This document shows positions 35,566 to 63,339 of a DNA stretch of 64,000 bases, one piece after another. This stretch comes from Myxococcales bacterium. GTDB lineage: Bacteria > Myxococcota > Myxococcia > Myxococcales > Myxococcaceae. Under the pieces are notes generated by a model that did not search any database, had not been told where the DNA came from, and was given only the letters and a program-made list of their open reading frames with translations. The stretch spans positions 1 through 64,000 of the forward strand of contig JACPVI010000070.1 in NCBI GenBank assembly GCA_016191815.1, given 5' to 3'. Numbering within the stretch: the first letter of the stretch is position 1; each line of letters opens with the position of its first letter. A program made the translations under genes and the position numbers.

Positions 35566-35573
35566 CGGAGGCG

Positions 35574-41966: not shown

Positions 41967-42127
41967 CAGGTGGGCCAGGCCGCGGCCCTGGAGCGGTTCT
42001 TCTCCACGGAGGAGCCGCCGGAGAAGCTCGATCAGCGTTCGCTCCCCCTCTCCGACGGCGACCGCGTCGAAGCCGGCTCGGAGGGACGCTCGAGCTGGAG
42101 GGCAGCTTCGGCGGTCCGCTGGCCAAG

Positions 42128-43479: not shown

Positions 43480-43543
43480 CGCCGCCGGCCCGCGGGGGCC
43501 GCATGGGTGACCCCTTGCTATGTTAGTCAACCTTAGCTAGGTT

Positions 43544-43786
43544 TTGGAGGTGCGCCGGGTCAACGTTCATGAGGCAAAGACGCAGCTCTCACGCCTCCTG
43601 GAGGAGGTCGAGGCAGGCGAGCGCGTGGTGATCGCGCGAGCGGGGGAGCCCGTCGCTGTGCTCGCGCCATACCGGGCGGCGGTGCGCAAGCGGCGCCTCG
43701 GGCTGTTTGCAGGCCAGGCGCGCATTCATGACGACTTTGACCAGTTGCCCCCGGACATCGCGGCGGCGTTCGGGGAGACCGAGTGA
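43544..43786 (+). CDS. Phd/YefM-family antitoxin
   Basis: RVNVHEAKTQLSRLLEEVEAGERVVIARAGEPVAVL. Confidence 0.75.
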   Translation: MEVRRVNVHEAKTQLSRLLEEVEAGERVVIARAGEPVAVLAPYRAAVRKRRLGLFAGQARIHDDFDQLPPDIAAAFGETE

Positions 43787-44172
43787 AGCTGCTGCTCGAC
43801 ACGCACGTGGTTCTGTGGAGCGCAAGCGAGCCCCAGAATCTGTCATCGGTGGCGCTGGCGGCGCTCGAAGACGGCGCGAATGAGGTGCTGGTCAGCGTGG
43901 TGTCGGCGTGGGAGATCGCGATCAAGCAGTCCCTCGGGAAGCTCGATCTGCCCAAGCCGGCTGAGCGGTGGCTGCCGGAAGTGCTGCGGCGGACGGGCTT
44001 CGAGGTTGCAGAGCTGGGCCTCTCGGCCGCACTGCGGGTTCGTGGTTTGCCCTGGCACCATCGCGATCCGTTCGATCGACTGCTGATCGCCCACGCGCTC
44101 GAGGACGGCTATACGCTCGTGACCCGCGACGGTGTCTTGGCGGAGTACGGCGTGCCGCTTTTGGAGGCTTGA
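43783..44172 (+). CDS. vapC: PIN-domain toxin VapC
   Basis: MKLLLDTHVVLW...VSAWEIAIK...DPFDRLLIAHAL; overlaps the antitoxin by 4 bp. Confidence 0.8.
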   Translation: MKLLLDTHVVLWSASEPQNLSSVALAALEDGANEVLVSVVSAWEIAIKQSLGKLDLPKPAERWLPEVLRRTGFEVAELGLSAALRVRGLPWHHRDPFDRLLIAHALEDGYTLVTRDGVLAEYGVPLLEA

Positions 44173-44196
44173 GAGGGAGGTCGCGGCAGGGCGGCG

Positions 44197-45951
44197 TCAG
44201 GGCCTTGTGGCCTTCCGCGCCGAGAGCAAGAGCCCGTCCGGCTCGGCGGTGACCAGGAACCGCCAGAAGAAGTTGACCCCGAGGATGGCGTCGGTGCCCT
44301 CCGGCAGCTCCTCCACCACCGCGACTCGCAGCCTCTCGGCCGACGCCTTGCCGAGCCCCAGTCGGTCTAGCTCTACGAGGCGCGCCGGCACCATCTTGCC
44401 CGCTGCTCGGACCTCGATCGCCGGCTGCTCGGAAGGCTTCAAGCCGATCCGCGAAGCGAAGGCGCTGCCGACGAGGGTGTAGCTCGTCCGCCCGGAGATA
44501 ACGAGCTGCGCGGGCTTGCCGTTCAACCGCGCCGCCACCTTCACCACCGGCTGACCGGGCTCGAAGCGGAGCGTGGCCTTTCCCCTTCCGGCGAGCTTGT
44601 CGCAGCCGCCGGCCAAGAACAGCTCGGAGCGGCGCTCGAGCGCCCAGTCCTCCTCCTGGTCCGGGCGCTGTTCCAGCCAGTACTGCAGCGCGAACGCGGC
44701 CTCGCAGGGGCGGGCGAGCTTCTCTTCCGCCCACTTCGCGTACCGCCCGGCGGCGAACCCGTTGGGCCGGTTGGCCATCGACTGGTGGTAGTCGCTCGCG
44801 GCCTGCTCGTACTCTCCCCGCTCGGCGTTCGCCTGCCCGCGCCACCACCAGAAGTCGGAGTCCTCCGGCGCATCCTCGATGAGCTGGGTGGCCACCAGGG
44901 CGGCCTCCTTCCACTCGCCCCGCTGCTCGCGGGCGACCATCGACACCCACAGCAGCCGAGGCCACTCGCCGCAGCGCCCCAGGAACCTCTCCACCAGGAG
45001 GAGCGCGGCGCCGTGATCGCCGTCGCGGTTCAGCCGCTCGCCCAGCTCGAGCGCTCTGCGCTTGTTGCACTGCACTCCGTCGATTGCCGCCTCGGTGTGG
45101 CGCTTGCGCGCCGCCGCCGCGTCCTCGAGCCGCCCGGCCTTGGTGTAGATGTCGGCGAGCTGCTCGGCCGCCAAGGCGTTCGCCGGGGTTTCCTGGTGCT
45201 CGCGCTCCAGCCTGGCGCGCACGTGGCGGTCGGCGTAGCTCTCCACGCTCTCGGTCCGCCGGGTGAGGACGAAGGGCACCGCCGAGACCCCGCCGGCCAC
45301 CACGAGCTCGAAGGCGACCACGAAGGCGATGCGCCGCCGCCGCCGCCGGGACCGTTCGGCTCGCTCGTCCTCGTCTTCCGGCGCGGCTTCCGGTCGGGCG
45401 CGGATCACCATGGTGCGAGAGACGAGATCGGCCAGGGTCCGACGGTCCGGCCGCTGGAGGGCGAGGAACGTGCCCAGCACCGCCGCGGCGAGGACGAAGA
45501 CCGAGGCGTAGGCGAGGACGGCGCTCATCCCGGAGGGAGCGAGGAAGGTGGCCACTCCGAGGAGCGAGGCCACGAAGCCCATCGCCAGGGTGAGGAGAAA
45601 GGCCGCCGGGAAGAAGCCGCGGCCGATCAGCTCGCGGAACAGGAGGTCGCCCGGATTGGCCGGGTGGCCATTCAGCGCCACCAACTGGAGTCCGCACAGG
45701 CGCATCCCCAAAGTGGCGCGGAAGGCGCCGAGCGGGACCACCGAGTAGCCGAGCACCGCCGCGAGCACTCCCCACATCGGAAGCACCACCCCCTGGGTGA
45801 GGAGCGGCACCAGGAAATACGCCGCGGCGAGCCCGACAACAATCGCCGCGTCCAGCAACCCGGCGATGATGCGGCGCCCGAGGGGCGCGGGGGGCAACGG
45901 CGGGGGATCTTTGGGCATGGGCTCTCCGGTGCGGCAGGCGGACGCGCTCAT
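44197..45951 (-). CDS. RDD-family membrane domain + TPR region + C-terminal retropepsin-like (TIGR02281-type) domain whose catalytic Asp appears replaced
   Basis: N-terminal RRIIAGLLDAAIVVGL with ~4 TM helices. TPR-like repeats in the middle. The C-terminal domain aligns to the bacterial clan-AA aspartic protease pattern, but DTGA reads SGRTS. Confidence 0.5.
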   Translation of the reverse strand: MSASACRTGEPMPKDPPPLPPAPLGRRIIAGLLDAAIVVGLAAAYFLVPLLTQGVVLPMWGVLAAVLGYSVVPLGAFRATLGMRLCGLQLVALNGHPANPGDLLFRELIGRGFFPAAFLLTLAMGFVASLLGVATFLAPSGMSAVLAYASVFVLAAAVLGTFLALQRPDRRTLADLVSRTMVIRARPEAAPEDEDERAERSRRRRRRIAFVVAFELVVAGGVSAVPFVLTRRTESVESYADRHVRARLEREHQETPANALAAEQLADIYTKAGRLEDAAAARKRHTEAAIDGVQCNKRRALELGERLNRDGDHGAALLLVERFLGRCGEWPRLLWVSMVAREQRGEWKEAALVATQLIEDAPEDSDFWWWRGQANAERGEYEQAASDYHQSMANRPNGFAAGRYAKWAEEKLARPCEAAFALQYWLEQRPDQEEDWALERRSELFLAGGCDKLAGRGKATLRFEPGQPVVKVAARLNGKPAQLVISGRTSYTLVGSAFASRIGLKPSEQPAIEVRAAGKMVPARLVELDRLGLGKASAERLRVAVVEELPEGTDAILGVNFFWRFLVTAEPDGLLLSARKATRP

Positions 45952-46077
45952 CTACCAGAGCGGCGCCCGTGCTCCCACGGCCGACGCGAATTGGGCGGAA
46001 GCCGCACGCGGCTGGGCGCCATGGCCCCACCGGCGACACGCATGCCCGCCGTCTGGGCCTCGGGTACGCTGTGAGCG

Positions 46078-46782
46078 ATGAGGTGGTTTGCGCGCCCCGC
46101 GGCGTCCCGGGCCGGCCGCTCCGGACTCTTCTCTCTGCTCGCCGTGGCTTCCGGCTGCATCGTGCCGGGCATCCCTCCTTTGGCATCGCTTGGCCACGCG
46201 GTGAATGCCCGGCCAACCGTGGAGGACGAGTCGCAGGTCCACCGGCTCCATGCCGGCGCCGGGCCGCTGGTGGCCGTCACCGATCGTTCGGTGGTGGCGG
46301 CAGGGTTCCCGGTCCAGGCCGCGCTCTCCCTCAGGCTGGCGCCGGAGTACGAGCTCTCGATCGTCGGGGCGAACTGGCTCCTGGGAGTCGAGGGCGACCT
46401 GACGCTCCAGCGCGGCCCGAGGACGCGAATCGGCTTCCTCCATGGAGTAGCGACCGCGGCGTACTTCGAGTCGCCAGGCAGCTCTTCCCTGAGATGGGCG
46501 CTCTTCGTGAATCCCACCGCCGGGATTCTCTTCGAGCTGCCCGCCGGTGAGAACGACCGCTTCTTCGCCGGGGCTCGGTACGCCTACGCCACGGCGATCG
46601 CCAACAGCGGCGTCTTCATCCAGCCCGCCCACTACCTCCTCGCCGGAGGAGGCTACAGCCTCTCGGCGGGCAGGCTTCGGGTATCCCCGGAGCTGCTGCT
46701 CGGAGCCACCTGGAATGACTCCAGCAGCACGGGCCCGGCCTGGCTCATCCTTCCCTCGGTCGGCTTCTCCGCTCCGTTTTGA
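46078..46782 (+). CDS. Lipoprotein / OMP-like hypothetical
   Basis: Lipobox LLAVASGCIV. Beta-rich, ends ...GFSAPF. Confidence 0.45.
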   Translation: MRWFARPAASRAGRSGLFSLLAVASGCIVPGIPPLASLGHAVNARPTVEDESQVHRLHAGAGPLVAVTDRSVVAAGFPVQAALSLRLAPEYELSIVGANWLLGVEGDLTLQRGPRTRIGFLHGVATAAYFESPGSSSLRWALFVNPTAGILFELPAGENDRFFAGARYAYATAIANSGVFIQPAHYLLAGGGYSLSAGRLRVSPELLLGATWNDSSSTGPAWLILPSVGFSAPF

Positions 46783-46801
46783 CCGCATCGCCGGTGCGAC
46801 C

Positions 46802-48496
46802 ATGAGCCGCCTCCAGACGCTGTGGGACCGGGCGCGACGGAGCCGCTGGACGGGCCCGCTCCTCGCCACCGCCTTCGGCCTCATCTGGTACTGCGCGCTG
46901 GTGGGGCCGGGCACCCTCTGGCCGCTCCACATCGACTGGCTGATGTCCGGCGACTGGTCGGCCCACCTGCTCGGCTGGCTGTTCTTCCGCATCGAGCAAT
47001 GGCAGCTCCCGCTGGGCGCGCTCTCGGGGCTGTTGCACCCCACCGGCACCTCGGTCGGTTACACCGACTCGATGCCTTGGCTGGCGGTGCTGTTCAAGCT
47101 CGCCTCGCCGGCGCTCCCGCCGGACTTCCAGTACGTCGGGCTGCACCTTGGTGCGTGCTTCGCGCTCCAGGGCTTCTTCGGCGCGCGGATCGCCGCCCTG
47201 CAGTCCGACCGACCCCTGGTGCAGGCACTTGGAGGCAGCCTGTTCGTCGCTACTCCGGTGCTCCTGGACCGGCTCGGGCACGACAGCCTCTGCGCGCACT
47301 GGATGCTGCTCGCGCTCGCGCTGTTCAACCTCCGGCCGTATGCGTCCCAAGCGGAGCGTCGCAAGACGCTGGGCTGGACGGTGGGGATGGTGGTCCTGGC
47401 GGCCGGCATTCACCCGTACCTGGCGGTGATGGCGCTGGCGCTCGCGCTCGCGCTTTTGGTCCGGCTGTCGGTGATCGACCGAGGGACGGGCTGGATGGAG
47501 GCCGCCCTGTGGACCTTCGCGCTCGGGCTCGGCGCGCTCGCCCCCTGGTACCTCTTCGGCTACATCGGCTCCGGCACCGCCCTCGGCGTTTCCGAATTCG
47601 GCCTTCGCTCTGCGGATCTGCTCACCCTCATCAACCCGGCCGGGCGCTCGCGCCTCTTCCCCGCGTTCCACACCGGGCCACTGCAGGCCGAGGGCTACGG
47701 CTACCTCGGGTCGGGCGTGGTGCTGCTCACGGTGGAGGCGCTTGCGGGGGTGGCGGCGAGATGGGGAAAGGCCGTTCCACGTGCGTGGGCTCGGGCGATT
47801 CCGCTGGCGGCCGTCTCGCTGCTCGCCGCGGGCTTTGCCCTGGCCACGCCGATAACGCTCGATGGGGAGCCGATCCTGGAGCTCGATTGGCTCTACCTCC
47901 CGCTGGAGAGCGTGGTCGCGCCGTTTCGGTCGACCGGCCGCTTCATCTGGCTGCTTCACTACCTCTGGATCACCGCGGCGGTGCTGTTGGCGATCCGGGT
48001 GTTCGGGCGGGAGCGCCTGGCGGCGGCGCTGCTCGGCCTGGTGCTGGCCACCCAGGTGGTGGAGGTCGGCCTGGCACACCAGGCTGCGGCGCTCGAGCAG
48101 CGGCCGTGGCGGCGCCCGAACCTGGCAGTGTGGGAGCCGGCGCGCGGCGGCTACCGGCACCTGGCGCTCTATCCCCCGCAGGTGTTCGGGGCGTGCGCCT
48201 GGATCGACCACGACGAGGTGATCAGGCTCTCGTACGTGGCCTACCGGCTCGGCCTCACCATCAACAGCGGCTACGTGGCTCGGGTGAAGGAGCCAGCGCG
48301 CGTGGGGTGCCTTGCCTCGACCAAGGAGCTGATGTCCGGGCTGCTCCGGCCAGACACCATCTATGTCGTGGACCCGCGGGCGGAGCACTGGTCCTGGCGC
48401 GGGGCGCGCTGCGGGGCGGTGGACGGGGTGATCGCCTGCGTCTCGCGGGCGAACCGCGATCCCTTCGCGGCACTCTTGGCGCACTCCAGAGGCTGA
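46802..48496 (+). CDS. Polytopic integral membrane protein (>=10 TM) of unknown function
   Basis: Hydrophobic helices throughout. The ORF-track N-terminal extension is rejected. Confidence 0.55.
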   Translation: MSRLQTLWDRARRSRWTGPLLATAFGLIWYCALVGPGTLWPLHIDWLMSGDWSAHLLGWLFFRIEQWQLPLGALSGLLHPTGTSVGYTDSMPWLAVLFKLASPALPPDFQYVGLHLGACFALQGFFGARIAALQSDRPLVQALGGSLFVATPVLLDRLGHDSLCAHWMLLALALFNLRPYASQAERRKTLGWTVGMVVLAAGIHPYLAVMALALALALLVRLSVIDRGTGWMEAALWTFALGLGALAPWYLFGYIGSGTALGVSEFGLRSADLLTLINPAGRSRLFPAFHTGPLQAEGYGYLGSGVVLLTVEALAGVAARWGKAVPRAWARAIPLAAVSLLAAGFALATPITLDGEPILELDWLYLPLESVVAPFRSTGRFIWLLHYLWITAAVLLAIRVFGRERLAAALLGLVLATQVVEVGLAHQAAALEQRPWRRPNLAVWEPARGGYRHLALYPPQVFGACAWIDHDEVIRLSYVAYRLGLTINSGYVARVKEPARVGCLASTKELMSGLLRPDTIYVVDPRAEHWSWRGARCGAVDGVIACVSRANRDPFAALLAHSRG

Positions 48497-48941
48497 CAGA
48501 GTTGCTCCGAACGCAGCTCGAAAGGCTCACCGCCGGCAGACGCGGGCAGGTGAGGCTTCGGTGGCCCGGCCGCTGGAAATCCAAGAGGGGGAAGCGGCCA
48601 ACCCGCAAGTTCAGCGCTCCCGGCGCGATCAGGTTGTGCAGTCCCACCACCAAGGTGTGCACCGTGGGCGAGGGAGTCATCCCCATGGTGGCCAGGGCCG
48701 ACACGTCCTCCGCGATGGAGCCGCCCAAGACGATGTCCAGGCGGCGCGGGACGAAGGTTTGAACGCGGTCGACGTTGCCGGTTGGTTTCGTCGCCGTCGC
48801 CGTCAACGCCTCCACGTTCACGTCAACGTTCACGTCGTCCCAATGACACTCGATCAAGGCGAGATTGTTTAGGTCGGTGCTTCGCCTGGTCGCCTCCCTG
48901 ATGGGGGCGCCGGCCGCTTTCTGCTACAACCGCCCCTCCGG

Positions 48942-49963
<1,022 letters not shown>

Positions 49964-49967
<4 letters not shown>

Positions 49968-51860: not shown

Positions 51861-52799
51861 ATGTCCAATTCCTCCTTCAACCAGCGCACCATCGCCGAGA
51901 CGATCAGTTGTCAGGGCGTGGGGCTGCACTCCGGTGCGCAGGTCACCATGAGGCTTCTTCCGGCGCCGGCGGGGCACGGCGTGGTCTTCGTGAGGACGGA
52001 CCTGGGGCCGCCTTTGGCGATCAAGGCGCTGGCGGAGAACGTGGTGGACACCTCGCTGGCGACCACCCTGGGCAACGGGGGGGCGAAGGTCGGCACCGTC
52101 GAGCACCTGATGGCGGCGCTTTGTGGGCTGGGCATCGACAACGTGCGCGTCGAGCTGGATGGGCCGGAGGTGCCCATCATGGACGGCAGCGCCGGCCCGT
52201 TCGCCTACCTCATCCGCACCGCGGGAATCCGCGTGCAGGACGAGCCGAAGAGCTTCTTGGTGGTGAAGAAGCCGATCACCGTGAGCGACGGGGACAAGGA
52301 GGCCACCCTCCAGCCGGCCAGCCGCTTCCGCATCGACTGCACCATCGATTTCCGCCACCCGCTCATCTCGGATCAGTCCTTCGGGCTGGAGTTCTCCGAT
52401 CGGACCTTCATCCGGGAGATCTCCCGGGCGCGGACCTTCGGCTTTTTGAGGGACGTGGAGCACCTGCGCAAGATGGGGCTGGCGATCGGCGGCTCCTTGG
52501 ACAACGCGGTGGTGGTGGACGAGTTCTCCATCCTCAACCCTGACGGGCTTCGCTTCCCCGACGAGTTCGTGCGCCACAAGGTGCTGGACGCGATGGGGGA
52601 CCTGGCGCTGTTCGGCCGGCCGGTGATCGGCCACCTCAAGGTGCTCAAGAGCGGGCATGCCCTCAACCACCGGCTGGTGCAGATGGTGCTGCAGGATTCG
52701 AGCTGCCACGCGGTGGTCCACGCCCGGAGGCGAGACGTGGAGCGGCTGGACTTGCGCTTCCCGGACCTGGCCGGAGTGCTGGAGCCGAGTGCGGCCTGA
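51861..52799 (+). CDS. lpxC: UDP-3-O-acyl-N-acetylglucosamine deacetylase LpxC
   Basis: MSNSSFNQRTIAETISCQGVGLHSGAQVTMRLLPAPAGHGVVFVRTDL...HALNHRLV match the LpxC N- and C-terminal signatures. Confidence 0.9.
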   Translation: MSNSSFNQRTIAETISCQGVGLHSGAQVTMRLLPAPAGHGVVFVRTDLGPPLAIKALAENVVDTSLATTLGNGGAKVGTVEHLMAALCGLGIDNVRVELDGPEVPIMDGSAGPFAYLIRTAGIRVQDEPKSFLVVKKPITVSDGDKEATLQPASRFRIDCTIDFRHPLISDQSFGLEFSDRTFIREISRARTFGFLRDVEHLRKMGLAIGGSLDNAVVVDEFSILNPDGLRFPDEFVRHKVLDAMGDLALFGRPVIGHLKVLKSGHALNHRLVQMVLQDSSCHAVVHARRRDVERLDLRFPDLAGVLEPSAA

Positions 52800-53015
52800 G
52801 CGCTGAGCCAAAAGAAGCATAGGGCATTCAACCCGCGTTTTTGAGGGGGAGCTCGTGAGGGAGGGGCGTGGAGGAGCAGAACGGCGCCCGCGGAGTCGCG
52901 GTCGAGTTGGTCGCGATGGCCTGGTTTCCGGCCCTCGCGCACACCTCTCCCTCACCGGCGCTGGCGGCGGGGGCGAGCGCGTGGAGGACGGCGAACTGGA
53001 GGCGGCGCGTTCGCC

Positions 53016-54365
53016 TCACAACCCCAGGGGTAGCTGCGGCGGCGAGCACGCTCTGGGCAGCGGCGGCGGTCCGGCAGGCAGGCCCAGGTGCGCCAGCACG
53101 GCGTGACACGCGGCGCGCGAGGTGACGACGGCCAGCACGCGCCGCCGCCCTCCGCAGCGGCACGTCATGATGTCCACGGCCCACGTCCGATGCAGCAGCG
53201 TTGCCCAGTCGAGCCGCGGTCGCCTGGGCAGCTCCCGCTTGGGCGCGGCGCCGAGCGGGGCGTTCCCCACCCCAGGCGGCAGCGGCGGCGGGGCCGGCTT
53301 CGGCACCACCTGCGCGCGGGCCTTCGCATTCGGCGCCAGCACGCCGTGAAACCGCAGGAGGTGCTTCCTTTCCTGAGGCAGCACCGCTCCCGCTCTGCGC
53401 AAAAGCTGCAGCGGCGTCAGCACCAGCGCCGTCGCGCCCGAGCGCAGCGGCCGCTTCAGCGCGTACTCGTACCGTCCGTCATCCCGCCGGGTGAGGCGCT
53501 CCTCGCACAGCGGCCCCCGCGCCCCGTACCGCGCCAGCCGCTCGAGCCCGTCCCTGTCGCGCGCCTGCACCGCGGTGCCCGCGTGCAGCGAGAACCCGTC
53601 CACCACCGCCTGGTGGGCACGCGGCCGCCGCGGCAGAGGCTCCACGGCCAGGGCCAGCCGCTCCTGCAGCCCATACCACTGCAGCGCCTCCATCGAGTCC
53701 TCCTCCGGCCGCTCGACCTCCTGCGGCGCCAGCACGCCCGCCGCCTCGAGCCGCCGCGTCACCCGCCTCACCACCCGCTCCAGCACCTTCGTCACCTCCT
53801 CGTCCGAGGGCGGCGGCACCGCCACGAAGGCGCAGCCCGGGCCCGCGAAGACGCCGTCCGGTACCAGCACGTGGAAGTGCGGATGCGGTTGCAGCGCCCC
53901 GCTGAAGAGCTGCAGCATCGACACCGCCCCACACTCCAGCGTCCCCATCGCCCCCTGCCGCCGCGCGCGGCGCCGCTGCCAGGCGAAAGTCGCGCGGAGC
54001 AGCTCGCGCAGGCACAGCGATAGCGATGGCCCGTCGCGCAGCAGCAGCCACCGCAGCCGCCACGGGAAGGCCAGCGTCCACTGGCGAATGGGCACCTCGG
54101 GCAGCACCGCGTCCACCAGCTGCGCCGCCGCGTCGTGCGGCATCACCGCCAACGTGGCGGTGCTGGGCTTCACCGACACCGAGCGGCTGCGCGAGCGAAT
54201 CGCCGGCAGCGACGAGGCCCGCGAGCGGCTGGTGGACGCCAGCGCCCTCAAGCGCCTCACCACCCCCGAGGAGGCCGCCGACGTGGTGGCCTTCCTCTGC
54301 TCCGAGCGCGCCTCGGCCATCACCGGCGCGGTGGTGGACGTGACCGGCGGAGCCCATCTGGGCAA
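53016..54365 (-). mobile_element. IS91-family (HUH/Y2 rolling-circle, ISCR-like) transposase gene; the N-terminal zinc-binding region appears missing or degenerate
   Basis: VPIRQWTLAFPWRLRWLL; the HUH block is QPHPHFHVLVPDGVF. The C-terminal zinc-finger tail CRCGGRRRVLAVVTSRAACHAVLAHLGLP is characteristic of IS91/ISCR transposases. The first ~70 residues are low complexity. Confidence 0.65.
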
Positions 54366-54378
54366 TCTTTGGGGCTGA
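54140..54378 (+). pseudogene. 3' fragment of a short-chain dehydrogenase/reductase (FabG-like) gene, truncated at the transposase
   Basis: The frame ends ...GITANVAVLGFTDTERL...LKRLTTPEEAADVVAFLCSERASAITGAVVDVTGGAHL, which is an SDR C-terminal consensus. No N-terminal Rossmann part is present. Confidence 0.6.
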
Positions 54379-54514
54379 CGCCGCTGGAGCCTGGACAGTC
54401 CAACTGAGGCGCGCGGGCGCCAGGCGCCGGCTGCAGGCGCTTGATTTCACGCGGCGCGCCACCCTGCGCACACGCCCGCGGAGGCTGGCGCGGCAGTTGC
54501 CTTGCCCAGGGCTG

Positions 54515-56701
54515 ATGGATCCGACGACCCCTTCACCGCGGTTTCAAGCGCCCTGGCTGCTGGGCGTAGCGGCGCTGGCCCTGGCCGCCTGCCTCGTGGA
54601 GGATGGGGGCCCCGACGGGGGCAGGCGGCGGGACGACTCCGAGGGGCTCGGCGATGCGTCCACCCTGCGGAGCTCTAGCCCATACGACGCGGGCGAAGAC
54701 GCGGGAGAAGCCGCCGTCGAGGCCTGCGACGGCTGGGACAACAACGGCAATGGCCTGGTGGACGAGGGAACCGGGGGCGAACGGTGCACCACCTCGGCCG
54801 GCGAGGAGGGCACCCTCATCTGCGTCCAGGGCGGCCTCAAGTGTGTGCGCTGCAGCCCGGGCCAGCAGAAGAATGAGCCCTGCGGCTGCGGCATCGATCG
54901 GACCGACACCTGCAATGAGACGGGCCGCTGGGTGTTCGGCTCGTGCGACGGCTGCCCCGCTTCCTACACGCCGTCCGGCTGCGACAAGGTCGGCGCGTGC
55001 ACCCCGGGCGACGTCGAGTACCGGCCCTGCGACATGTGCCCCGCCGACGGCGGAGCCTGCGGCACCCGCTGCGTAGGAGCCCGCTGGATGTGTTCCAACT
55101 CCTGCGCCTGGGTGCAGGCTGCTCCCTGCGAGGTGCTGAGCCAGCCCGAGTGCACCGCCGACCAGGTGTTCGAGGAGCCCTGCGGCGCCTGCGGCAAGCG
55201 ACAAGTCGTCTGCGACGGCTGCTTCTGGACGCGCAAGCCCTGCCGCGACCAGGGCGCCTGCGTGCCGGGACGCATTCGCGACGTGCCGTGCCTGTCCGGC
55301 GCCTGCCTCCCCGGGCACGTCGCCACCTCTACCTGCACCGAGCAATGCCAGTGGGGGGCGACCTCGGCATGCCGCGGCTGCACCCTGAGCACGCCGGCAC
55401 AGGAGACCACCGAGTACTGCGTGGCCGGACACCCGCTCTGCGGCGCGAAGTTGACGCGCACCCAGTGCGTCGGCGAACCCACCGACTCGTGCGGCCCCGG
55501 CGGCGGCCCCCTCGAGGGCCAGCTCACCACCACCACCGTCAAGGACGAGTGCCCGCTGGTCGAGTGCAACCCCGGCGACGTGGTGGACCTGGGTGCCTGC
55601 CAGTGCCCCACCTACCGGCGCAGCAAGACGTGCGGCGCCGACTGCCGCTTCCAGCTCACCGAGTGCCCCACGCCGGTGTGCGTGCTGGGTCAGCTGAGGA
55701 CCGTGGCCTGCACGCAGTACGACAACGCCTCGCGCACCGAGAAGTGCGAGTCCTGCGGCTGGGCCGCCGCCGGCGGCTGCGCGGGCAACGTGAGCGGCCT
55801 TCCCTGCCAGTGCTACCCCGGCCAGGCCCAGACGCTCTTGCGGAGCTGCGGGCCGAGCAACGGCTGCATGCGGCAGCAGGTGACTCGAACCTGCGTCGAC
55901 TGCCGCTGGGAGGAAACCGTCGGCGCCTGCAACCAGCCGCCACCCTGCACCACGGCCGACAACTCGGTGACGCAGGTCTCCTGTGGCGCCAACACCTGCG
56001 GCAAGACGTTCACTCGCACCACCACCTGCGACCTCACCACCACCTGCAGCCTGCTGGTGAGCGACGACCGCTCCAGCTGTCCGCCCTGCCAGCAGGGCCA
56101 GACGCGTCAGACGTCGTGCACCACCGGCACCGGCGCCTGCGGCACGCAGACGTCGACCTGCGACGCCACCTGCTCCTGGGGCGCCCCGTCGGCCTGCCAG
56201 GCCTCGCCGAGCTCTTGTACCCCGGGCACCACCAAGACCGAATCCTGCACCACCAGCGCCTCGCTCTACTGCGGTGTGCCAGGCAGCCGGACGCTCAAGT
56301 GCGCCGCCAACGGCTGCGGCTGGAACCCGATCACCGACTGCCTGCCCACCGACCCGAGCCGCTGCAAGAAGGGCGACTCCCAGGCGGTCGGCACCTGCTC
56401 GTGCGGCACTCCCGACGTACGCACCTGCGACTCCACCTGCCAGTGGGGCCCCTCGAGCTGCTCCCCGGCCTGCACCGCGGGGACGGTGATGTCCCAGACC
56501 TGCGTGGCCACCGACACCTGCAACGCCGCCGGCCACAAGCGCGTCAAGTGCACCGGCTGCGCCTGGGTCGACGACGGGCCCTGCGTCCCCGACGACGCCA
56601 GCCGCTGCAAGCCCGGAGACACCAAGACCGTCGTCTGCCAGGACCTCGGCACCAAGACGCTGACCTGCACGGCGAGCTGCTCCTGGCCGACGTGTCAGTG
56701 A
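54515..56701 (+). CDS. Cysteine-rich repeat lipoprotein (myxobacterial MopE-like CDGxDNxxNGxxDE motif plus ~100 Cys)
   Basis: Lipobox LALAACLVE. CDGWDNNGNGLVDE is present. Repeated C..C...C..C modules run throughout. Confidence 0.65.
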   Translation: MDPTTPSPRFQAPWLLGVAALALAACLVEDGGPDGGRRRDDSEGLGDASTLRSSSPYDAGEDAGEAAVEACDGWDNNGNGLVDEGTGGERCTTSAGEEGTLICVQGGLKCVRCSPGQQKNEPCGCGIDRTDTCNETGRWVFGSCDGCPASYTPSGCDKVGACTPGDVEYRPCDMCPADGGACGTRCVGARWMCSNSCAWVQAAPCEVLSQPECTADQVFEEPCGACGKRQVVCDGCFWTRKPCRDQGACVPGRIRDVPCLSGACLPGHVATSTCTEQCQWGATSACRGCTLSTPAQETTEYCVAGHPLCGAKLTRTQCVGEPTDSCGPGGGPLEGQLTTTTVKDECPLVECNPGDVVDLGACQCPTYRRSKTCGADCRFQLTECPTPVCVLGQLRTVACTQYDNASRTEKCESCGWAAAGGCAGNVSGLPCQCYPGQAQTLLRSCGPSNGCMRQQVTRTCVDCRWEETVGACNQPPPCTTADNSVTQVSCGANTCGKTFTRTTTCDLTTTCSLLVSDDRSSCPPCQQGQTRQTSCTTGTGACGTQTSTCDATCSWGAPSACQASPSSCTPGTTKTESCTTSASLYCGVPGSRTLKCAANGCGWNPITDCLPTDPSRCKKGDSQAVGTCSCGTPDVRTCDSTCQWGPSSCSPACTAGTVMSQTCVATDTCNAAGHKRVKCTGCAWVDDGPCVPDDASRCKPGDTKTVVCQDLGTKTLTCTASCSWPTCQ

Positions 56702-56709
56702 GGCACACG

Positions 56710-58290
56710 ATGAAGACCAGCGCCTCGGCCCTGCTGCTGCTCGCCCTCGGGTGCACCCAGGTGGAGCTCTACAAGCCGGTGGACGACGATCCCCCCATTC
56801 CGCGGGAGCGCCTCTACGCCCGCGTCTGCGGCCCGGCCGAGCGCACCCTGCCCACGCCTTACAAGATTCTCTTCGTCGTCGACACCTCGGCCTCCAACCT
56901 CATCAACGAGACTGACCCGCCGATGTACAACGGCCTCATCGACCTGGTGAACGGCGTCACCCGTCGCGAGACTTCGGTGCGCAGCGCCATCAGCGCCCAC
57001 CAGGCGAAGCCGGACGTGAGCTTCGGCATCATCACCTTCAACGACTTTCCTCAGGTGCAGACGTTCGGCTTCACGCGCGACTTGAAGGCGCTCGACGCCG
57101 CGGTCCGGAACATCGGCGCCGCCACCGGCTGGACCAACTACTCCGACACCCTCATCCGCGCCGGAGAAGTCATCACCGGCGACCTCGGGCGAGTAGACGC
57201 CTCCGAGGCCCTGCGAACGCACTACCTGGTGTTCTGGATCAGCGATGGCTACCCGACCCGCGGCATCACTCACCAGGACCCCGAGGTGCTCTCCAAGGCG
57301 CTGGGCGACTTCGTCAAGGGCATCAAGGAGGGCGCGGCGGGGCGCGCGGCCGAGGTGCGCTTCAACACCGCCTTCCTCGGCGGCGGCAAGCCGATGGGCG
57401 AGGAAGACCCGCTGGCCTGGGCGCAGGAGGCCGAGAACGCCCGGCGCCTCTTGGCGAGCATGGCCGAAGTCGGAGGAGGCTCCTTCACCAACATCGCCGC
57501 CGGCGAGCCGATCGCCTTCGACATCAACCCCGCGCCGGTGCTGCGGCGCTTCCGACTGTCCACGGTGGTGGTGGCCAACCGCAGCGTGGTGTTCGGAGAC
57601 GTGCGGCCGCGGCCCGACACCGATCAGGACGGGCTGGGGGACCTCGAGGACCCCGACCCGCGCAACGCCGACACCGACGGCGACGGGTTGCGCGACGGCG
57701 TCGAGGCGCAGTTCCCCGGAGGCGATCCGCTGGCGAAGGAGGTGCCCGGAGGGTGCGCCTCGGCGGGGCTCGACTCCGACGGCGACGCGCTGTGGGACTG
57801 CGAGGAGGCCTTCATCGGGACGGACCCGAACAACCCCGACACCGACGGCGACCTGCTGCTCGACTCGCTCGAGGTCCGGGCCCGGGCGTCTCCGTTGAAC
57901 GCCGCCAACCTCGACCTCGACGGGGACGGCCTGGGCGAGCAGGCCGAGGTGCTGGCGCAGCTCAACGCGCGCGAGCCCAACCCGCCGGACGTGGTGAAGC
58001 GCTGGGCGCGCAAGTGGCTCGTCTCACCCGACGGGGCCGCGGCCGGCGGCAGCCTGTGCTACCAGGTGGAGGTGGCGAACCTGTACATGCTGGAGACGCT
58101 GGCCGCCGCAGGCGAGCCCGCGGGCAGCAACACCCTCGAAGTCGTCGCGGCGTTCGAGCCGGACGACGGCGGCAAGCCCATCTTCCATTTCCGGGCCACC
58201 GCCGGCGGCGTGTTCCGCGGACCGAACTACGTCGAGCCCGCCTCGCGGATGTTCGAGCTGGACTCGTCCGCTTTCGGAGGCCTGCGATGA
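56710..58290 (+). CDS. Lipoprotein with a VWA domain (MIDAS DxSxS) and thrombospondin-type-3-like Ca-binding DxDxDG repeats
   Basis: Lipobox LLLALGCTQ. ILFVVDTSASN. DTDQDGLGDLEDPDPRNADTDGDGLRDGVE...DSDGDALWD...NPDTDGDLLLD. Confidence 0.7.
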   Translation: MKTSASALLLLALGCTQVELYKPVDDDPPIPRERLYARVCGPAERTLPTPYKILFVVDTSASNLINETDPPMYNGLIDLVNGVTRRETSVRSAISAHQAKPDVSFGIITFNDFPQVQTFGFTRDLKALDAAVRNIGAATGWTNYSDTLIRAGEVITGDLGRVDASEALRTHYLVFWISDGYPTRGITHQDPEVLSKALGDFVKGIKEGAAGRAAEVRFNTAFLGGGKPMGEEDPLAWAQEAENARRLLASMAEVGGGSFTNIAAGEPIAFDINPAPVLRRFRLSTVVVANRSVVFGDVRPRPDTDQDGLGDLEDPDPRNADTDGDGLRDGVEAQFPGGDPLAKEVPGGCASAGLDSDGDALWDCEEAFIGTDPNNPDTDGDLLLDSLEVRARASPLNAANLDLDGDGLGEQAEVLAQLNAREPNPPDVVKRWARKWLVSPDGAAAGGSLCYQVEVANLYMLETLAAAGEPAGSNTLEVVAAFEPDDGGKPIFHFRATAGGVFRGPNYVEPASRMFELDSSAFGGLR

Positions 58291-58784
58291 GCGGGCGCAG
58301 CGTGCTTGGGGCGGGCTTGCTGGCGCTGTGCGGCGGGTGCGGCGCGGGCAACTCGCTCGAAGGGAGCCTGAGCCAGGAGCTGGCGCTGGGTTTCGATGAC
58401 GTCGAGGTGCGCTACTCCGCCGGCGCGCTGGCGCTGTCGTACCTGCGGCTCTCCGGCCCCGCGCCGGGGACGACGTTCCAGCTGCTCGTGCGAATGGACT
58501 CGCCCGAGGCGGTGGCACCCGGAAGCGTCGACCTCGCCTCGAGGCTTTCGACCGGCGAGCCGCGGGCCGCTGCCTCGCGGGCGATGGGCGATGAGGACAG
58601 CCGCTTTCCCCCGGTGGCGGCGGGCGTCATCCGGCTCGACGCCTGGCGGGGCAAGGACGGGCTGACGCGCGGCAGCTTCGGGCTTTCCTTCGCGAACGAG
58701 GCGGCTACCCGCTACGTCGGCGCCGGCCGCTCGGTCCATGGCACCTTCGCGGTGGAAGGCTCTGCCGAGGTCGAATCGCACTGA
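58287..58784 (+). CDS. Small lipoprotein, translationally coupled (ATGA) to the VWA gene
   Basis: Lipobox LLALCGGCGAG. Confidence 0.5.
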   Translation: MSGRSVLGAGLLALCGGCGAGNSLEGSLSQELALGFDDVEVRYSAGALALSYLRLSGPAPGTTFQLLVRMDSPEAVAPGSVDLASRLSTGEPRAAASRAMGDEDSRFPPVAAGVIRLDAWRGKDGLTRGSFGLSFANEAATRYVGAGRSVHGTFAVEGSAEVESH

Positions 58785-58801
58785 GCCGCGGCCGCGGACA
58801 G

Positions 58802-59137
58802 TCACCGGCGGCCGAGCCAAAGGAAGCCGGCGGCAAAGGGCAGCCCGACCAGCGCCATGACGTAGAAGACGCCGCGCTCGCCGTGGGCGTAGACGTTCAG
58901 GAAAAGCAGCGGCCCCACCACCGTCATCAGGTCGGTCATCGTCGCCAGCACTCCGAAGACGCCGCCGTAGCTGCCGTCGGTGCCGTGCGCCTTGCCGGCG
59001 TGCTTCAGCGTCGCGGTGAAGATGGCCGAAGAGGCGCACACGTACCCGGCGTAGGGGCCCGAGCCGTCAGTTGCCGGTGCGATCCTCAAGGATGGAGATC
59101 CGCCGCTCGTGGTCCTCGACCTTCTCCTTAAGATCAA
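58802..59137 (-). pseudogene. 3' remnant of an MFS-type transporter gene (last ~2 TM helices)
   Basis: The C-terminal ...VFYVMALVGLPFAAGFLWLGRR tail is typical of MFS. No upstream N-terminal TMs. Confidence 0.4.
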
Positions 59138-59360
59138 GTCGGGTGGCCAGAAGGTCGCGCACCTGCTGGACGGCGGTCGCGACAGCTACCAGCTCGGTCG
59201 CCAGCCGGGTCTCCGACTCGAGCTGGCGTCGCTCCGCCCGGTCGAGCCGATCGTTATTGGCGTCCAGCCGCTCGTTGGTCTGCTTGACCTCGCCCTTGAG
59301 ATCCCGGATCTCGTCGCGGATCTCCCGGAGGATCTGAACGGTGATATCGGAGGGCTCCAC
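59067..59360 (-). CDS. Small coiled-coil protein (97 aa)
   Basis: Heptad-rich: EIRDEIRDLKGEVKQTNERLDANNDRLDRAERRQLESE... Confidence 0.35.
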   Translation of the reverse strand: MEPSDITVQILREIRDEIRDLKGEVKQTNERLDANNDRLDRAERRQLESETRLATELVAVATAVQQVRDLLATRLDLKEKVEDHERRISILEDRTGN

Positions 59361-59563
59361 GGGGTGCGACGTTAGTCGGCACCTCCCGGAGCGTCAAACG
59401 GCTCAGCCGTGCAAGGTGAAAGCGGCGCCGCATGCCGACCGGGTGCCAGAACGCCCTCCGTGTGCTGCGGCGCCCACGCGCCAGGTGCTGTCCGCTCCGC
59501 TCGTCGCGCCAGCGTTTTCTCTCCTGATCCGTTACTTGCTGGGAGGCGTCACCCTGACGGAGA

Positions 59564-60055
59564 TCATGTACTCAACTGCCCCAGCTCGGTCAGCTCGTAG
59601 CCGGCCGGCGGAATGGTGAACGCTTCACCGCGGCGCGCCTTGTTCCACCGCGCCTCCACCATGCGGTGCACCGAGTTGTCGCGCTCCAGCTCGCTCACCT
59701 GGCCGCGCACGCCGAGCACCATGCGGTCTGCGCTCGAGGCCGGCTCGTAGACGCCGTGCTCGTCGGCGATGAGCGTGTTCGTCCACCGGCACAGGTAGAC
59801 GAGGTGGTGCCAGTCGGCGTCGTTGCGCGAGAGGCGAGAAATCTCCAGGCTCATCACGATGCCCACCTCGCCGCGGGCGACGGCGCTCACCAGTCGCGCG
59901 AAGCCCGCCCCTGCGGGACTCCAGTTCCGCGTCGATCGCGTCCATCGCTCGGGTCGGCGATTCCGAGTGCGCTCGTAGACCTGGCGACGGTGTTCGAGGA
60001 TCTCGGCCTCTCGGTTGAAGTGTCGCTCGTCCGGGGTCACGAAGCGGATCGCCAA
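59564..60055 (-). pseudogene. N-terminal catalytic-domain fragment of a (large) serine recombinase
   Basis: GEVGIVMSLEISRLSRNDADWHHLVYLCRWTNTLIADEHGVYEPASSADRMVLGVRGQVSELE fits the resolvase core. It is truncated at 163 aa and the first ~60 aa are degenerate. Confidence 0.55.
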
Positions 60056-60119
60056 GACGCGGCTGGCCGCGCCCGTCGCCCTGGCCAGGGTGAAGAGGAT
60101 TCAGCGGCTGGGGAACGAG

Positions 60120-61346
60120 TCATCCGGCGTTCGGCGGAGGAGCCGCCTGTAGGCCGGCGATGAAGTCGAACACCCGCTGCATTTCGCCCTCGTCGTCCTT
60201 CTCCCGACCGAGCTCGAAGCCGTATTTCAGAAGCAGAAAATCGGTGTAGGCGACGGCGAAGAACTCGTTCTCATTGCGGAGCTGGTACTGCCGCCAGATC
60301 CACCGGTGTTTCTTCGCGCGCTGGAACAAGGCGGTGATGCCTTCCGCGACCGAGTCGGGCATTGAGCCGTGAGCGAGGTGCGCCAGCTCGTGGGCGAAGG
60401 TCCAGCCTTCCGGCGTCACGTCCAACAGCTCGCCGATTGAGGCCACCGCGATCCGGTCCGAGGCCAGGCCATGCAGCGCGGCGAAGGACCGATGGTCGTC
60501 ATCCGCTCGCTCGCCCGCTAGCTCCTGAAGCTCGGGCAGGTCGACCGGTCGCACGTCCATGGGAAGGATGCGCATTACCGCGCCGCGTTCGGCCAGCGCC
60601 AGAAAGAACCGCTCGAGCGGGAGCGCCGAGGCGCAAACCACCCTCCCCTCCGCGCGGGTGAGAGCCGGCCAGTCGGGGACGATTCGCTGCAACGCCTCCG
60701 GCGCATCACTCGCCGGCAGCCTGGCGACCAGCCCGAAATGGTTCTCGTGCTCGGTGGCGAGCGCGGCCCCGTAGCCGAATGCCGCGCCGAAGTGCGAGGG
60801 ACTTGCCTCACGCGCTTGCTCAAAGAGCGAAATGGCTGAAGACAGTCTCTCTCGCCTCAGCTCCGCGGTGGCGAGCTGGCAGAGCCCCTCGGCGGTCTTC
60901 CCCTCGGCAAGTAGCTTCTCGCCGAGCGCCTTCGTCTCCTCGATGCTCCCCAGCCTCAAGGTGGGCGCGATGCGAGGCGATTCGGCGGTCAGCTTGCCCG
61001 CCAGGAGCTTGAAGTTCACCGCATGCGCGATGAGCCGCCCCCGTTGCGCGTGATCATGCACCACCGCCTCTTCGCCTTCGAGCCGCGCCACGAGCTCGTC
61101 GTGCAACTGTCCTACCTCGGTGGCCTCGTCGCGGTCCCAGGCGCCTGTCCAACCACGCTTCATCTGCGCGTCGTGCCAGGCGACCGCCCGGGCCGCGAGC
61201 TCGCGCGCTTTCTCGAGCTGGTTTCCCGCGAAGTACGCCTGCGCGAGCAGGAACCAGATGCGTGGGTCCGGCTCATCGCGGAAGGGCTCTAGCACCGGCG
61301 CTGCCTCGTGCCCCTGGCCGTGCTCCAGCAAGAGCTGGGCGAGCAC
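60120..61346 (-). CDS. TPR-containing protein with an HExxH (HELAHLAH) metallopeptidase-like motif
   Basis: TPR-like helices at the N-terminus. FAHELAHLAHG near the C-terminal third. Confidence 0.45.
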   Translation of the reverse strand: MLAQLLLEHGQGHEAAPVLEPFRDEPDPRIWFLLAQAYFAGNQLEKARELAARAVAWHDAQMKRGWTGAWDRDEATEVGQLHDELVARLEGEEAVVHDHAQRGRLIAHAVNFKLLAGKLTAESPRIAPTLRLGSIEETKALGEKLLAEGKTAEGLCQLATAELRRERLSSAISLFEQAREASPSHFGAAFGYGAALATEHENHFGLVARLPASDAPEALQRIVPDWPALTRAEGRVVCASALPLERFFLALAERGAVMRILPMDVRPVDLPELQELAGERADDDHRSFAALHGLASDRIAVASIGELLDVTPEGWTFAHELAHLAHGSMPDSVAEGITALFQRAKKHRWIWRQYQLRNENEFFAVAYTDFLLLKYGFELGREKDDEGEMQRVFDFIAGLQAAPPPNAG

Positions 61347-61387
61347 CCGCGCCTCCCGCCAGCGGGAGAGGGGATCCCCAGGTCCAA

Positions 61388-61700
61388 TCAGCGGCTCTTC
61401 GGCGGAGGAGAAGCCTGCAGCGGATCGTCAGGCCATGCGTGCCTGGGACAGCGGCGGGCGAGCTCGTTCCGAATGGCGGGGTAATGCCGCGACCAGAAGC
61501 CCGCCAGATCGGTGGTGATTTGCACCGCCCGCCGGTTGGGCGCGAGCAGGTGAAGCACCAGGGGTACCCGCCCGGCGCACACCGCCGGTCCGCGTGACAG
61601 GCCGAAGAAGTCCTGCAGGCGCGACTCCACCCAGGGCGGCTTGCCCCGCTCATAGCTCACCTTCACTTGCCGGCCACCGGGGCCCCCTCCACACTCCACG
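61388..61700 (-). pseudogene. hrpB: 3' fragment of ATP-dependent helicase HrpB (C-terminal domain only)
   Basis: [50 protein letters not shown] matches the HrpB C-terminal RYPKHxWPDDP region. No helicase core upstream. Confidence 0.55.
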
Positions 61701-61916
61701 CCGCCCGCCTCTCTCGGGCATGCGTAGCCCACCGGGCTGACACCCGCGGCTTGGGGGAACGCGACGGGTGCACGACCAGATGCACTCGACGCCAAGCTGC
61801 GCCAGCCCTGCCTGGCCCACCGCGTCGAGCCAAGTGAGGTGCTCGCGGTCTTGCCGAGGCCACCGCCTCCATGGACGACGAATGACCTCCGAGACGGCTA
61901 CTTCTTAGCGTTGGGC

Positions 61917-62212
61917 TGCACTCGGGTGCGCAGGTCACCATGAGGCTTCTTCCGGCGCCGGCGGGGCACGGCGTGGTCTTCGTGAGGACGGACCTGGGGC
62001 CGCCTTTGGCGATCAAGGCGCTGGCGGAGAACGTGGTGGACACCTCGCTGGCGACCACCCTGCCGCGGGCATGCCCTCAACCACCGGCTGGTGCAGATGG
62101 TGCTGCAGGATTCGAGCTGCCACGCGGTGGTCCACGCCGGAAGGCGCGACGTGGAGCGGCTGGACTTGCGCTTCCCGGACCTGGCCGGGGTGCTCGAGCC
62201 GAGCGCGGCCTG
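61917..62212 (+). pseudogene. lpxC: Internally deleted second copy of lpxC (5' ~150 bp joined to 3' ~150 bp)
   Basis: 61917-62072 is ~99% identical to 51917-52072 and 62060-62215 is ~95% identical to 52655-52810. The junction leaves the reading frame out of phase. Confidence 0.8.
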
Positions 62213-62271
62213 AGCGCTGAGCCGGCGCGCTTTCCCTTGCGTCCCGCTAAGGGGGCCTGTATGCGGCCCCG

Positions 62272-63339
62272 ATGAAAGAGCTCCTCGGAACTGCGGCTCT
62301 CACTGCGGCCTTCGCCCTCGTCTGGGCGTGCGCCTGCAGCAAGGACAACAAGCCCGCCGGAGGAGGCGCCGTCGCGGCCCGCAGCTTCGAGCCTCCCCCC
62401 GACACGGTGGTCGGCATCTGGGGCGGCGGGAAGAAGATCACCCTCGCCGAGGTCGACCAGAAGATCGCCAACCAGCTCCAAGACATGGAGCAGAAGAAGT
62501 ACGAGCTCCGCCTCCAGGCGATCGAATCGATGGCCGTGGACGCGGTGCTGGAGGAGGAAGCCAAGAAGAAGGGAATCACCAAGGAGCAGTACTTCCAGGC
62601 CGAGGTGGACTCGAAGGTGCCCGCCCCCTCCGAGGAGGAGATGCGCAAGTTCTTCGACCAGGTCGCCCCGCAGCTCCCGCCCGGCGCCAGCTTCGAAGAG
62701 CTCAAGGACCGCATCGCCCGCTCCCTCACCGGCCCCAAGCGCGAGGCCTTGGCGAAGCAGCTCTTCGAGCAGCTCAAGGCCACCGCCGCGGTGGAGGTGA
62801 AGCTCGAACCCCCGCCCAAGCCGCGCAAGCAGGTCGAAGCCAAGGGCCCCTCCCGCGGCCCGGAGAACGCCAAGGTGACCATCGTCGAGTTCTCCGACTT
62901 CGAGTGCCCCTTCTGCTCCCGGGCCCACGACACCGTGGAGGAGGTGATGCAGGCCTACGCCGGGAAGGTGCGGCTGTTCTTCCGCCACTACCCGCTGCCC
63001 TTCCACAAGAAGGCCGGAAAGGCAGCGGAGGCCGCGAGCTGCGCGCACGAGCAGGGCCGCTTCTGGGAGTACCATGACCTGCTCTTCAAGAATCAGCAGA
63101 AGCTCGAAGTGCCGGACCTCAAGGAACACGCCAAGTCGCTCGGGCTCGACCAGGCGCGCTTCGAGCAGTGCCTCGATTCGGGCAAGAACCTCCAGACCAT
63201 CCAGGAGGACATGCAGGCGGGCCAGAAGGTCGGGGTCGACGGGACGCCGGCGTTCTTCATCAACGGAGTGATGCTCTCGGGCGCCCAGCCGCTGGAAGAG
63301 TTCAAGAAGGTGATCGACCAGGAGCTGGCCGCCCACTAG
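62272..63339 (+). CDS. DsbA-family thiol:disulfide oxidoreductase lipoprotein with an N-terminal coiled/linker region
   Basis: Lipobox LVWACACSK. The thioredoxin active site is FSDFECPFCSRAH. GVDGTPAFFING is also present. Confidence 0.8.
   Translation: MKELLGTAALTAAFALVWACACSKDNKPAGGGAVAARSFEPPPDTVVGIWGGGKKITLAEVDQKIANQLQDMEQKKYELRLQAIESMAVDAVLEEEAKKKGITKEQYFQAEVDSKVPAPSEEEMRKFFDQVAPQLPPGASFEELKDRIARSLTGPKREALAKQLFEQLKATAAVEVKLEPPPKPRKQVEAKGPSRGPENAKVTIVEFSDFECPFCSRAHDTVEEVMQAYAGKVRLFFRHYPLPFHKKAGKAAEAASCAHEQGRFWEYHDLLFKNQQKLEVPDLKEHAKSLGLDQARFEQCLDSGKNLQTIQEDMQAGQKVGVDGTPAFFINGVMLSGAQPLEEFKKVIDQELAAH

Follow-up and report, generated by a model that had tools for sequence, protein, structure and literature searches.

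What is the relationship between two truncated genes that meet at a single joint in the chromosome of an uncultured Myxococcales bacterium, one encoding a transposase and the other a short-chain dehydrogenase/reductase (SDR)? The window, that is the whole 64,000-nucleotide stretch analysed here, comes from a metagenome-assembled genome (MAG) and has a G+C content of ~70%. A first-pass annotation had placed at 52810–54378 an insertion sequence (IS) of the IS91 family that was inserted into, and disrupted, a FabG-like SDR gene. The coordinates fit well: at 52810 the sequence first departs from that native to the region downstream of lpxC, and 54378 marks the SDR stop codon. The arrangement appears to be larger than the annotation proposed. 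Our analysis points to the whole interval 52818–61760 as probably one defunct, cargo-bearing rolling-circle IS of the IS91/ISCR-like kind in a Myxococcales chromosome, with the SDR piece located inside the element. The interval first annotated would then cover the 1.3 kb next to oriIS together with the SDR edge of the cargo.

The transposase open reading frame (ORF), at 53016–54365 on the minus strand, matched the Pfam domain Y2_Tnp (PF04986) with an E-value of 3.7e-21 and 76 bits, against a cutoff of 20.9. The window protein was aligned with 26 homologues (27 sequences in total). Both histidines of the HUH block, within HPHFHVLVPDG, and the cysteine pair of the C-terminal C-x-C/CGGRRRVLA motif are invariant across this alignment. 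The same holds for one tyrosine in LERLARY (the RY motif), and a second tyrosine located 21 residues further on is nearly invariant. The canonical Y-x3-Y spacing was not seen among these 27 sequences, and ISCR1 carries the same single-tyrosine motif, in the form LCRY. The first tyrosine of the Y-x3-Y pair of IS91 appears to be replaced by leucine in the window copy (RLARY). Compared with the ISCR1 transposase, the window protein is 35% identical over almost its full length (E = 3e-77).

The scores obtained with the NCBIfam models require some care. The window protein reached 153 bits with ISCR_clade_Ia (NF052416) and 38 bits with transpos_IS91 (NF033538), below the curated cutoffs of 925 and 125 bits, respectively. 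The protein of an intact relative, described below, scored 210 and 88 bits, and ISCR1 scored 652 and 112 bits, likewise under both cutoffs. Since ISCR1 itself falls short, these cutoffs do not delimit the IS91/ISCR family, and their use as a membership test was dropped. On the Y2_Tnp match, the HUH block and the C-terminal cysteine motif, the earlier assignment of the minus-strand ORF to an IS91-family, ISCR-like HUH rolling-circle transposase is confirmed, in a form without the zinc-binding N-terminus. The Zn_Tnp_IS91 domain was absent from the window copy in the Pfam search, which has also lost the cysteine-rich N-terminal block that nearly all aligned homologues possess.

The extent of this loss was defined with an intact relative, P0002, which is encoded on a 3.7-kb JGI contig (L001), is 88% identical to the window protein and contains both Zn_Tnp_IS91 (residues 40–114) and Y2_Tnp. 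Its true start is probably the GTG at L001 1768, giving a protein of 466 aa. At the nucleotide level, the minus strand of the window is 86.6% identical to L001, with window 54139 to 52815 corresponding to L001 2042–3368. Because the homology to L001 stops at this point, the window copy is considered to begin at residue 92, with the joint to the SDR sequence at 54139/54140. The transposase remnant at 53016–54139 (minus strand) corresponds to residues 92–466 of the intact 466-aa protein, with the HUH block, the tyrosine and the cysteine pair kept and the zinc domain lost. Codons 1–74 of the longer ORF (54365 to 54144) represent an antisense reading of the SDR fragment and not protein. The first-pass annotation had described the zinc-binding domain as replaced by low-complexity sequence; the domain is indeed absent, and the stretch taken for its replacement is this antisense reading.

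The zinc domain was lost because the 248 nt that encode it were replaced, and its absence is a defect of this copy and not of the family assignment. Relative to L001, the remnant shows a ratio of non-synonymous to synonymous divergence (dN/dS) of 0.23, with zero stop codons and zero frameshifts, a pattern consistent with a fairly recent inactivation. The earlier suspicion of a decaying copy was borne out by the loss of the zinc-binding domain, which leaves a defunct transposase. An Rfam search of 52500–54600 yielded a single match, to mir-3132, below threshold (25 bits against a gathering score of 84), and was taken as chance. When metagenomes were scanned with the intact transposase P0002, zero relatives came up, and exact look-ups of LpxC and P0001 returned zero contigs.

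On the other side of the joint, the plus strand at 54139–54378 encodes 80 residues (GITAN...NLWG*) that match positions 149–236 of the 236 in adh_short_C2 (E = 2.9e-14). As the first-pass annotation had stated, only the last ~80 residues of an SDR are present, and the similarity is not due to chance. The fragment starts at GITAN, past the YxxxK motif, and lacks the Rossmann fold (TGxxxGxG) and the catalytic Ser, Tyr and Lys, so it is a gene fragment and not a functional SDR. The search for the missing 5' part that the annotation had anticipated found no SDR N-terminal sequence within the whole 64-kb window. An apparent tblastn extension of the SDR similarity upstream to 54091 was rejected, the DNA there being 87% identical to the IS. 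The nearest homologues of the fragment are 59–65% identical and lie in unrelated contexts; the closest (P0123 and P0125) are short ORFs of 126 aa covering the C-terminal half of an SDR. In L083 (1–507), such an ORF is cut off by an in-frame stop codon from SDR-like sequence further upstream. Transposase and SDR gene are truncated at one common joint, 54139/54140, which argues against a simple insertion because an insertion typical of the family would leave an intact terIS and a complete 5' gene end.

The ends of the element were examined with L001 and two relatives at 51% identity, L090 and L091, the latter from Pyxidicoccus caerfyrddinensis. The oriIS-type end occupies 52818–53015 on the minus strand, a non-coding region of 198 nt that keeps its identity to L001 up to the terminus and ends with ...AAAAACGCGGGTTGAATGCCCTATG. 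A terminus of the form CCTAT[GCA] followed by C[T/G]TN, located 170–240 nt past the stop codon, is common to the window (where it reads CCTATG), L001, L090, L091 and ISCR2. In this family, a tetranucleotide of the CTTG/GTTC type with T at position 2 lies beside oriIS (PMC13181058). In the window this place is taken by GAAG (CTTC on the IS strand), which belongs to an 8-nt spacer, AAAAGAAG, at 52810–52817 between the end of the lpxC homology and the IS terminus; where the left copy of lpxC continues into AAAAGAAG, the right copy reads GGCGCGC. The tetranucleotides CTTC here and CTTT in L001, from two insertion sites, both conform to this rule.

The position of the opposite end was revealed when the part of L001 absent from the remnant was searched against the window, which gave one significant match. 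L001 1732–1793 corresponds to window 61745–61683, on the same strand as the remnant, with 82.5% identity over 63 nt (blastn, E = 1.4e-11, 61.7 bits), compared with a maximum of 38.3 bits in 100 shuffles. The 5' (terIS-type) end at 61685–61760 (minus strand) includes the tetranucleotide GTTC at 61757–61760, a palindrome, GTCAGCCC-GGT-GGGCTAC, at 61724–61741, and the first ~9 codons of the transposase, in which the GTG start reads GCG. The corresponding palindromes are GTCAGCC-CGAGA-GGCTAC in L001 and GTCAGA...TCTGAC in L090, and the adjacent tetranucleotide is GTTC in the window and CTCG in L001. This anatomy agrees with the subterminal palindrome and adjacent tetranucleotide described for terIS ends (PMC13181058).

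With the 5' end found at 61685–61760, on the same strand as the remnant, the element is predicted to extend over 52818–61760, a total of 8,943 bp. Because this end lies 7.5 kb away, beyond the cargo, the SDR fragment is placed inside the IS and not the IS inside an SDR gene. No terminal inverted repeats were found between the ends at 52818 and 61760, and no target-site duplication was observed, the flanks ...AAAAGAAG and GCGACGGG... having no repeat in common.

Some further observations concern element ends and relatives in other genomes. A scan of metagenomes with the oriIS motif AACGCGGNTTGAANGCCCTAT returned two unrelated contigs, L088 and L089, without an IS91-like gene nearby; ~4 chance matches were expected by a rough estimate. 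The scan was of no help in defining the ends and was set aside. The motifs in question, of the form GCGAAAACGCGGCTTGAAYGCCCTATSC, are located at L088 6487–6509 (minus strand) and L089 1861–1885 (plus strand) and could be orphan ends or chance matches. In L088, an imperfect inverted copy of the motif lies ~2.2 kb off, with IS3-type ORFs in the vicinity. Around the IS91-like copy in L090, resolvase, DruA (Druantia) and phage-integrase genes were observed (L090 1–2739 and 7062–7416), surroundings that suggest a mobile or defence island.

Between the terIS-type end and the remnant lies a cargo block of 7,545 bp (54140–61684), absent from the lpxC loci of relatives, which stands in for the 248 nt of L001 (1794–2041) that encode the zinc-binding domain. 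Its genes were taken from the Pfam results and the gene calls of an independently assembled contig (L082, described below). After the SDR fragment at its left edge, the block contains a secreted cysteine-rich protein without a Pfam domain (54497–56701, plus strand) and a VWA/TSP3 lipoprotein with a VWA_2 domain (56722–58290, plus strand). These are followed by a resolvase-domain fragment (59567–60100, minus strand), a TPR protein (60120–61346, minus strand) and, at the right edge, an hrpB C-terminal fragment (61421–61681, minus strand) that matches HrpB_C positions 47–133 of 133. The resolvase-domain ORF covers positions 50–144 of the 145 in the catalytic domain, lacks the DNA-binding domain and is probably a further gene remnant. 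Small ORFs are also present in the cargo, and no replication gene was found in the block. Both edge genes, SDR and hrpB, point inward and have lost their 5' parts. Homologues of the cysteine-rich protein occur elsewhere: the same pair, a cysteine-rich gene followed by a VWA gene, is present between relA and aspS on a distant contig (L087 3631–7423), and L086 (432–2582) encodes a homologue with 53% protein identity. An SDR gene beside the cysteine-rich homologue was found in neither the L086 nor the L087 locus.

The composite is flanked on both sides by lpxC sequence. To the left, an intact lpxC (51861–52799, plus strand; Pfam LpxC, E = 7e-111, positions 1–267 of 268) ends with its stop codon 18 nt from the IS terminus. 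To the right, a partial second lpxC at 61908–62223 (plus strand) consists of nt 56–210 of the coding sequence, the dinucleotide CC, and nt 791 to the stop codon plus 10 nt, and it runs into native intergenic DNA followed by a dsbA-like gene (62272–63339). The repeated tracts measure 155 nt at 99% identity (nt 56–210 of the coding sequence) and 159 nt at 96% (3' end). Between the terIS-type end and this partial copy, a flank of 147 nt (61761–61907, minus strand), identified by motif alone, encodes a Walker A motif; a second copy was not found in the window or in the fetched loci. This flank is probably what is left of a P-loop/STAND NTPase gene at a site where the element resided before.

The native organisation of the locus is known from related genomes. 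Pyxidicoccus (L004), Myxococcus xanthus (L006) and two MAGs (L007 and L008) carry an unbroken run of ruvB, a 495-aa gene, lpxC, the dsbA-like gene and a DUF4388 gene. All seven related Myxococcaceae compared, which also include L002, L012 and L020, have the dsbA-like gene immediately after lpxC. By this comparison, the composite would occupy the site where related genomes run from lpxC straight into the dsbA-like gene. Elsewhere in the window, ruvA (33253–34116) and ruvB (48873–49964) are ~14.8 kb apart and are adjacent in the closest relative, L002. The gap (34117–48872) contains genes for an aldehyde dehydrogenase, a flavin oxidoreductase, a subtilase, a radical SAM protein, an RDD/aspartyl protease and a DUF6311 protein, and no mobile-element gene was seen in it. 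In another Myxococcales MAG, a fragment of a different IS91-family transposase (46% identity; L019 14869–15108) lies ~4 kb downstream of lpxC at the contig end, probably by coincidence.

The joints were also examined in a second assembly. The Logan contig L082 (SRR12113421; 9,210 bp) is 100% identical to window 52745–61954 and reproduces the inner joints, namely those between the lpxC 3' end and oriIS, between transposase and SDR, between hrpB and the IS 5' end, and between the filler DNA and lpxC. Its ends fall within the identical lpxC tracts, where an assembly with k = 31 is expected to break. As all inner joints are reproduced in L082, the finding is independent of the outer linkage.

These features can be combined into a possible history. 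The intact ancestor would have been an L001-like element of ~1.65 kb encoding an HUH transposase of 466 aa whose N-terminus formed a zinc-binding domain, bounded by a terIS-type end with its subterminal palindrome upstream of the gene and by an oriIS-type CCTATG terminus ~200 nt downstream. Family membership, end anatomy and the flanking tetranucleotides lead us to infer that its arrival was by single-strand rolling-circle transposition and left no target duplication. Two illegitimate joints would then have brought in the cargo, for instance when a break was repaired with captured DNA or when replication switched templates. The cargo may have entered a single interrupted copy, as we prefer, or may lie between the remains of two copies. 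lpxC itself may have been duplicated through recombination with imported sequence or, at an earlier stage, in tandem with filler DNA. In its present state the element is predicted to be unable to move by itself; with its two ends preserved, it could in principle still be mobilised by an intact copy acting in trans.

Several points weigh against the reading of a single cargo-bearing element. Only one genomic context is known, and the 8.9-kb unit shows no sign of ever having moved as a unit. Each boundary is uncertain by a few nt, as a single intact relative (L001, 87% at the nucleotide level) defines the ends. The terIS piece is short (~76 nt) and could be a remnant of a second IS copy. When the oriIS end was folded as single-stranded DNA, no hairpin was more stable than in shuffled controls (z-scores of +0.4 to +1.3). 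The contig L082, in turn, leaves the outer linkage (integrated element or circle) without independent confirmation and may derive from the same reads or sample as the MAG. The case at present consists of one decayed element in one MAG.

The lpxC repeats bring in an explanation that would add to the single-element reading and would not exclude it. In this scenario, a 9.4-kb unit (52810–62223) was captured in the ISCR style in another lineage and, as a circular or linear molecule with lpxC sequence on it, integrated within lpxC by homologous recombination. The direct repeats of 155 and 159 nt flank the insertion as such an event would predict, circles of IS91 are documented, and ISCR1-linked duplications of the 3' conserved segment (3'-CS) have been described (PMC3575428). 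Between the two lpxC copies there are 8 differences, of which 7 fall at third codon positions (dS 0.091, dN 0.005) and are synonymous, the pattern expected of alleles that separated while both were functional. They cluster at the repeat edges, and the central 212 nt without any resembles a conversion or crossover tract. Taken together, this suggests that the two lpxC alleles diverged under selection and later underwent recombination or conversion. The data speak only mildly against an older in-situ duplication: if the partial copy had evolved neutrally after such an event, the synonymous excess would be only mildly unlikely (P ~0.07, by our own estimate). On the other side, the joints at 61907/8, 62062–65 and 62223 have no family-type tetranucleotide and are for this reason not attributed to the transposase, and neither a donor locus nor an empty site was found. 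A termination by the transposase at 62223 as the cause of the right boundary was likewise rejected, the AGCC/GGCT there being off the family pattern. We regard the import of the 9.4-kb unit as possible but doubtful.

A related proposal concerns mobility. The 8.9-kb unit may be a non-autonomous element in which host gene fragments were captured between intact ends, which can still be mobilised in trans, and which moved from one myxobacterial lineage to another along with part of lpxC before integrating beside the resident lpxC by homologous recombination. Such an element would be the bacterial equivalent of gene capture by Helitrons. We consider this unlikely.

The same anatomy would also result if two IS copies in the same orientation had flanked a chromosomal segment running from the SDR gene to hrpB, and two separate deletions, each extending into adjacent gene sequence, had then removed most of one copy (all but 76 nt of its terIS end) and the 5' part of the other, leaving terIS, cargo and oriIS remnant in their present order. 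One-ended transposition that starts at one oriIS and ends at a downstream terIS is known in the IS91 family. This scenario, however, requires two independent deletions, each across a boundary between IS and chromosome, and the retained IS parts are nearly complementary (248 nt missing, no overlap), as a single interrupted copy predicts. An origin from two copies therefore seems improbable to us, and the single interrupted copy is preferred.

An assembly artefact, in which the lpxC tracts led the assembler to thread a distinct molecule (for example a free circle of 9.4 kb, or DNA of another strain) into the chromosome, appears very unlikely. The source is a MAG, L082 ends inside the identical lpxC tracts, and an integrated element and a repeat-sharing circle yield the same assembly graph. 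Against this, the common tracts are only 74 and 138 nt long and can be spanned by 150-nt reads, the block encodes no replication gene, and the inner IS–SDR and hrpB–IS joints are identical in L082.

The original proposal of a single IS91-like copy that inserted into an SDR gene and is now simply 5'-truncated and decaying accounts for a remnant without its N-terminus that abuts an SDR 3' fragment, and it is scarcely tenable given that one joint truncates both genes, lpxC lies on the far side, the window contains no SDR 5' half and the IS 5' end lies 7.5 kb off. Our own first working model, an IS 5'-truncated by one deletion into the SDR gene, was dropped on account of the 5' end at 61685–61760. 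For annotation, the locus illustrates that a truncated transposase next to a truncated gene is better not taken for an insertion into that gene before the opposite end of the element is found.

The single cargo-bearing element can be compared with several known systems. The closest parallels are the ISCR elements: ISCR1 (orf513), ISCR2 (identical with ISVsa3) and ISPps1 each share ~35% amino acid identity over ~93% of the protein. The order of motifs is that of ISCR, with the CxxC...CxxC zinc domain, PxRQW, HUH, GFSLHA, the single-tyrosine LERLxRY and the C-terminal CxxCGG. The oriIS-type terminus resembles that of ISCR2, with GAAAA... followed by CCTAT[ACG]C ~200–240 nt past the stop codon, and as in ISCR the element is associated with non-IS DNA. 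It differs in its host (Myxococcota instead of Beta- and Gammaproteobacteria), in the absence of resistance genes and in its destroyed transposase. Moreover, the foreign DNA is located inside the element, between the terIS-type end and the transposase remnant, and not beyond one of the ends.

With IS91, IS801 and IS1294, the element shares an HUH rolling-circle transposase of the Zn_Tnp_IS91 plus Y2_Tnp type, unlike ends and the absence of target duplication, together with a terIS palindrome beside a GTTC/CTCG-type tetranucleotide and a CTTG/GTTC-like one beside oriIS. The sequence match is weaker (88 bits with NF033538 for the intact relative, against a cutoff of 125), and orf121 is missing. 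We regard the element as a new member of the IS91/ISCR family, distant (35% identity to ISCR1), defunct and of myxococcotal origin.

A further resemblance is to non-autonomous Helitrons, eukaryotic relatives of IS91 in which both termini are kept and host gene fragments replace a working transposase. The likeness goes no further than this structure; the present case is a single instance in another domain of life, with neither repeated capture nor any sign that the unit has transposed as a whole. Complex class 1 integrons with ISCR1 and a duplicated 3'-CS likewise have an ISCR-type element and foreign DNA between direct host repeats, a role played here by lpxC. The arrangement in the window is mirrored: the repeat adjoins the element at oriIS, and the additional DNA is found towards terIS. 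One of the repeats is internally deleted, and no integron is present.

ISCR and IS91 elements have been studied almost wholly as vehicles of antibiotic resistance in Proteobacteria, and the present locus adds a relative from Myxococcota with recognisable oriIS- and terIS-type ends. It indicates that several kb of ordinary chromosomal DNA can end up between the ends of such an element, beside a partly duplicated essential gene, lpxC. If the unit can be mobilised, it would widen the known range of host-DNA packaging by rolling-circle elements.

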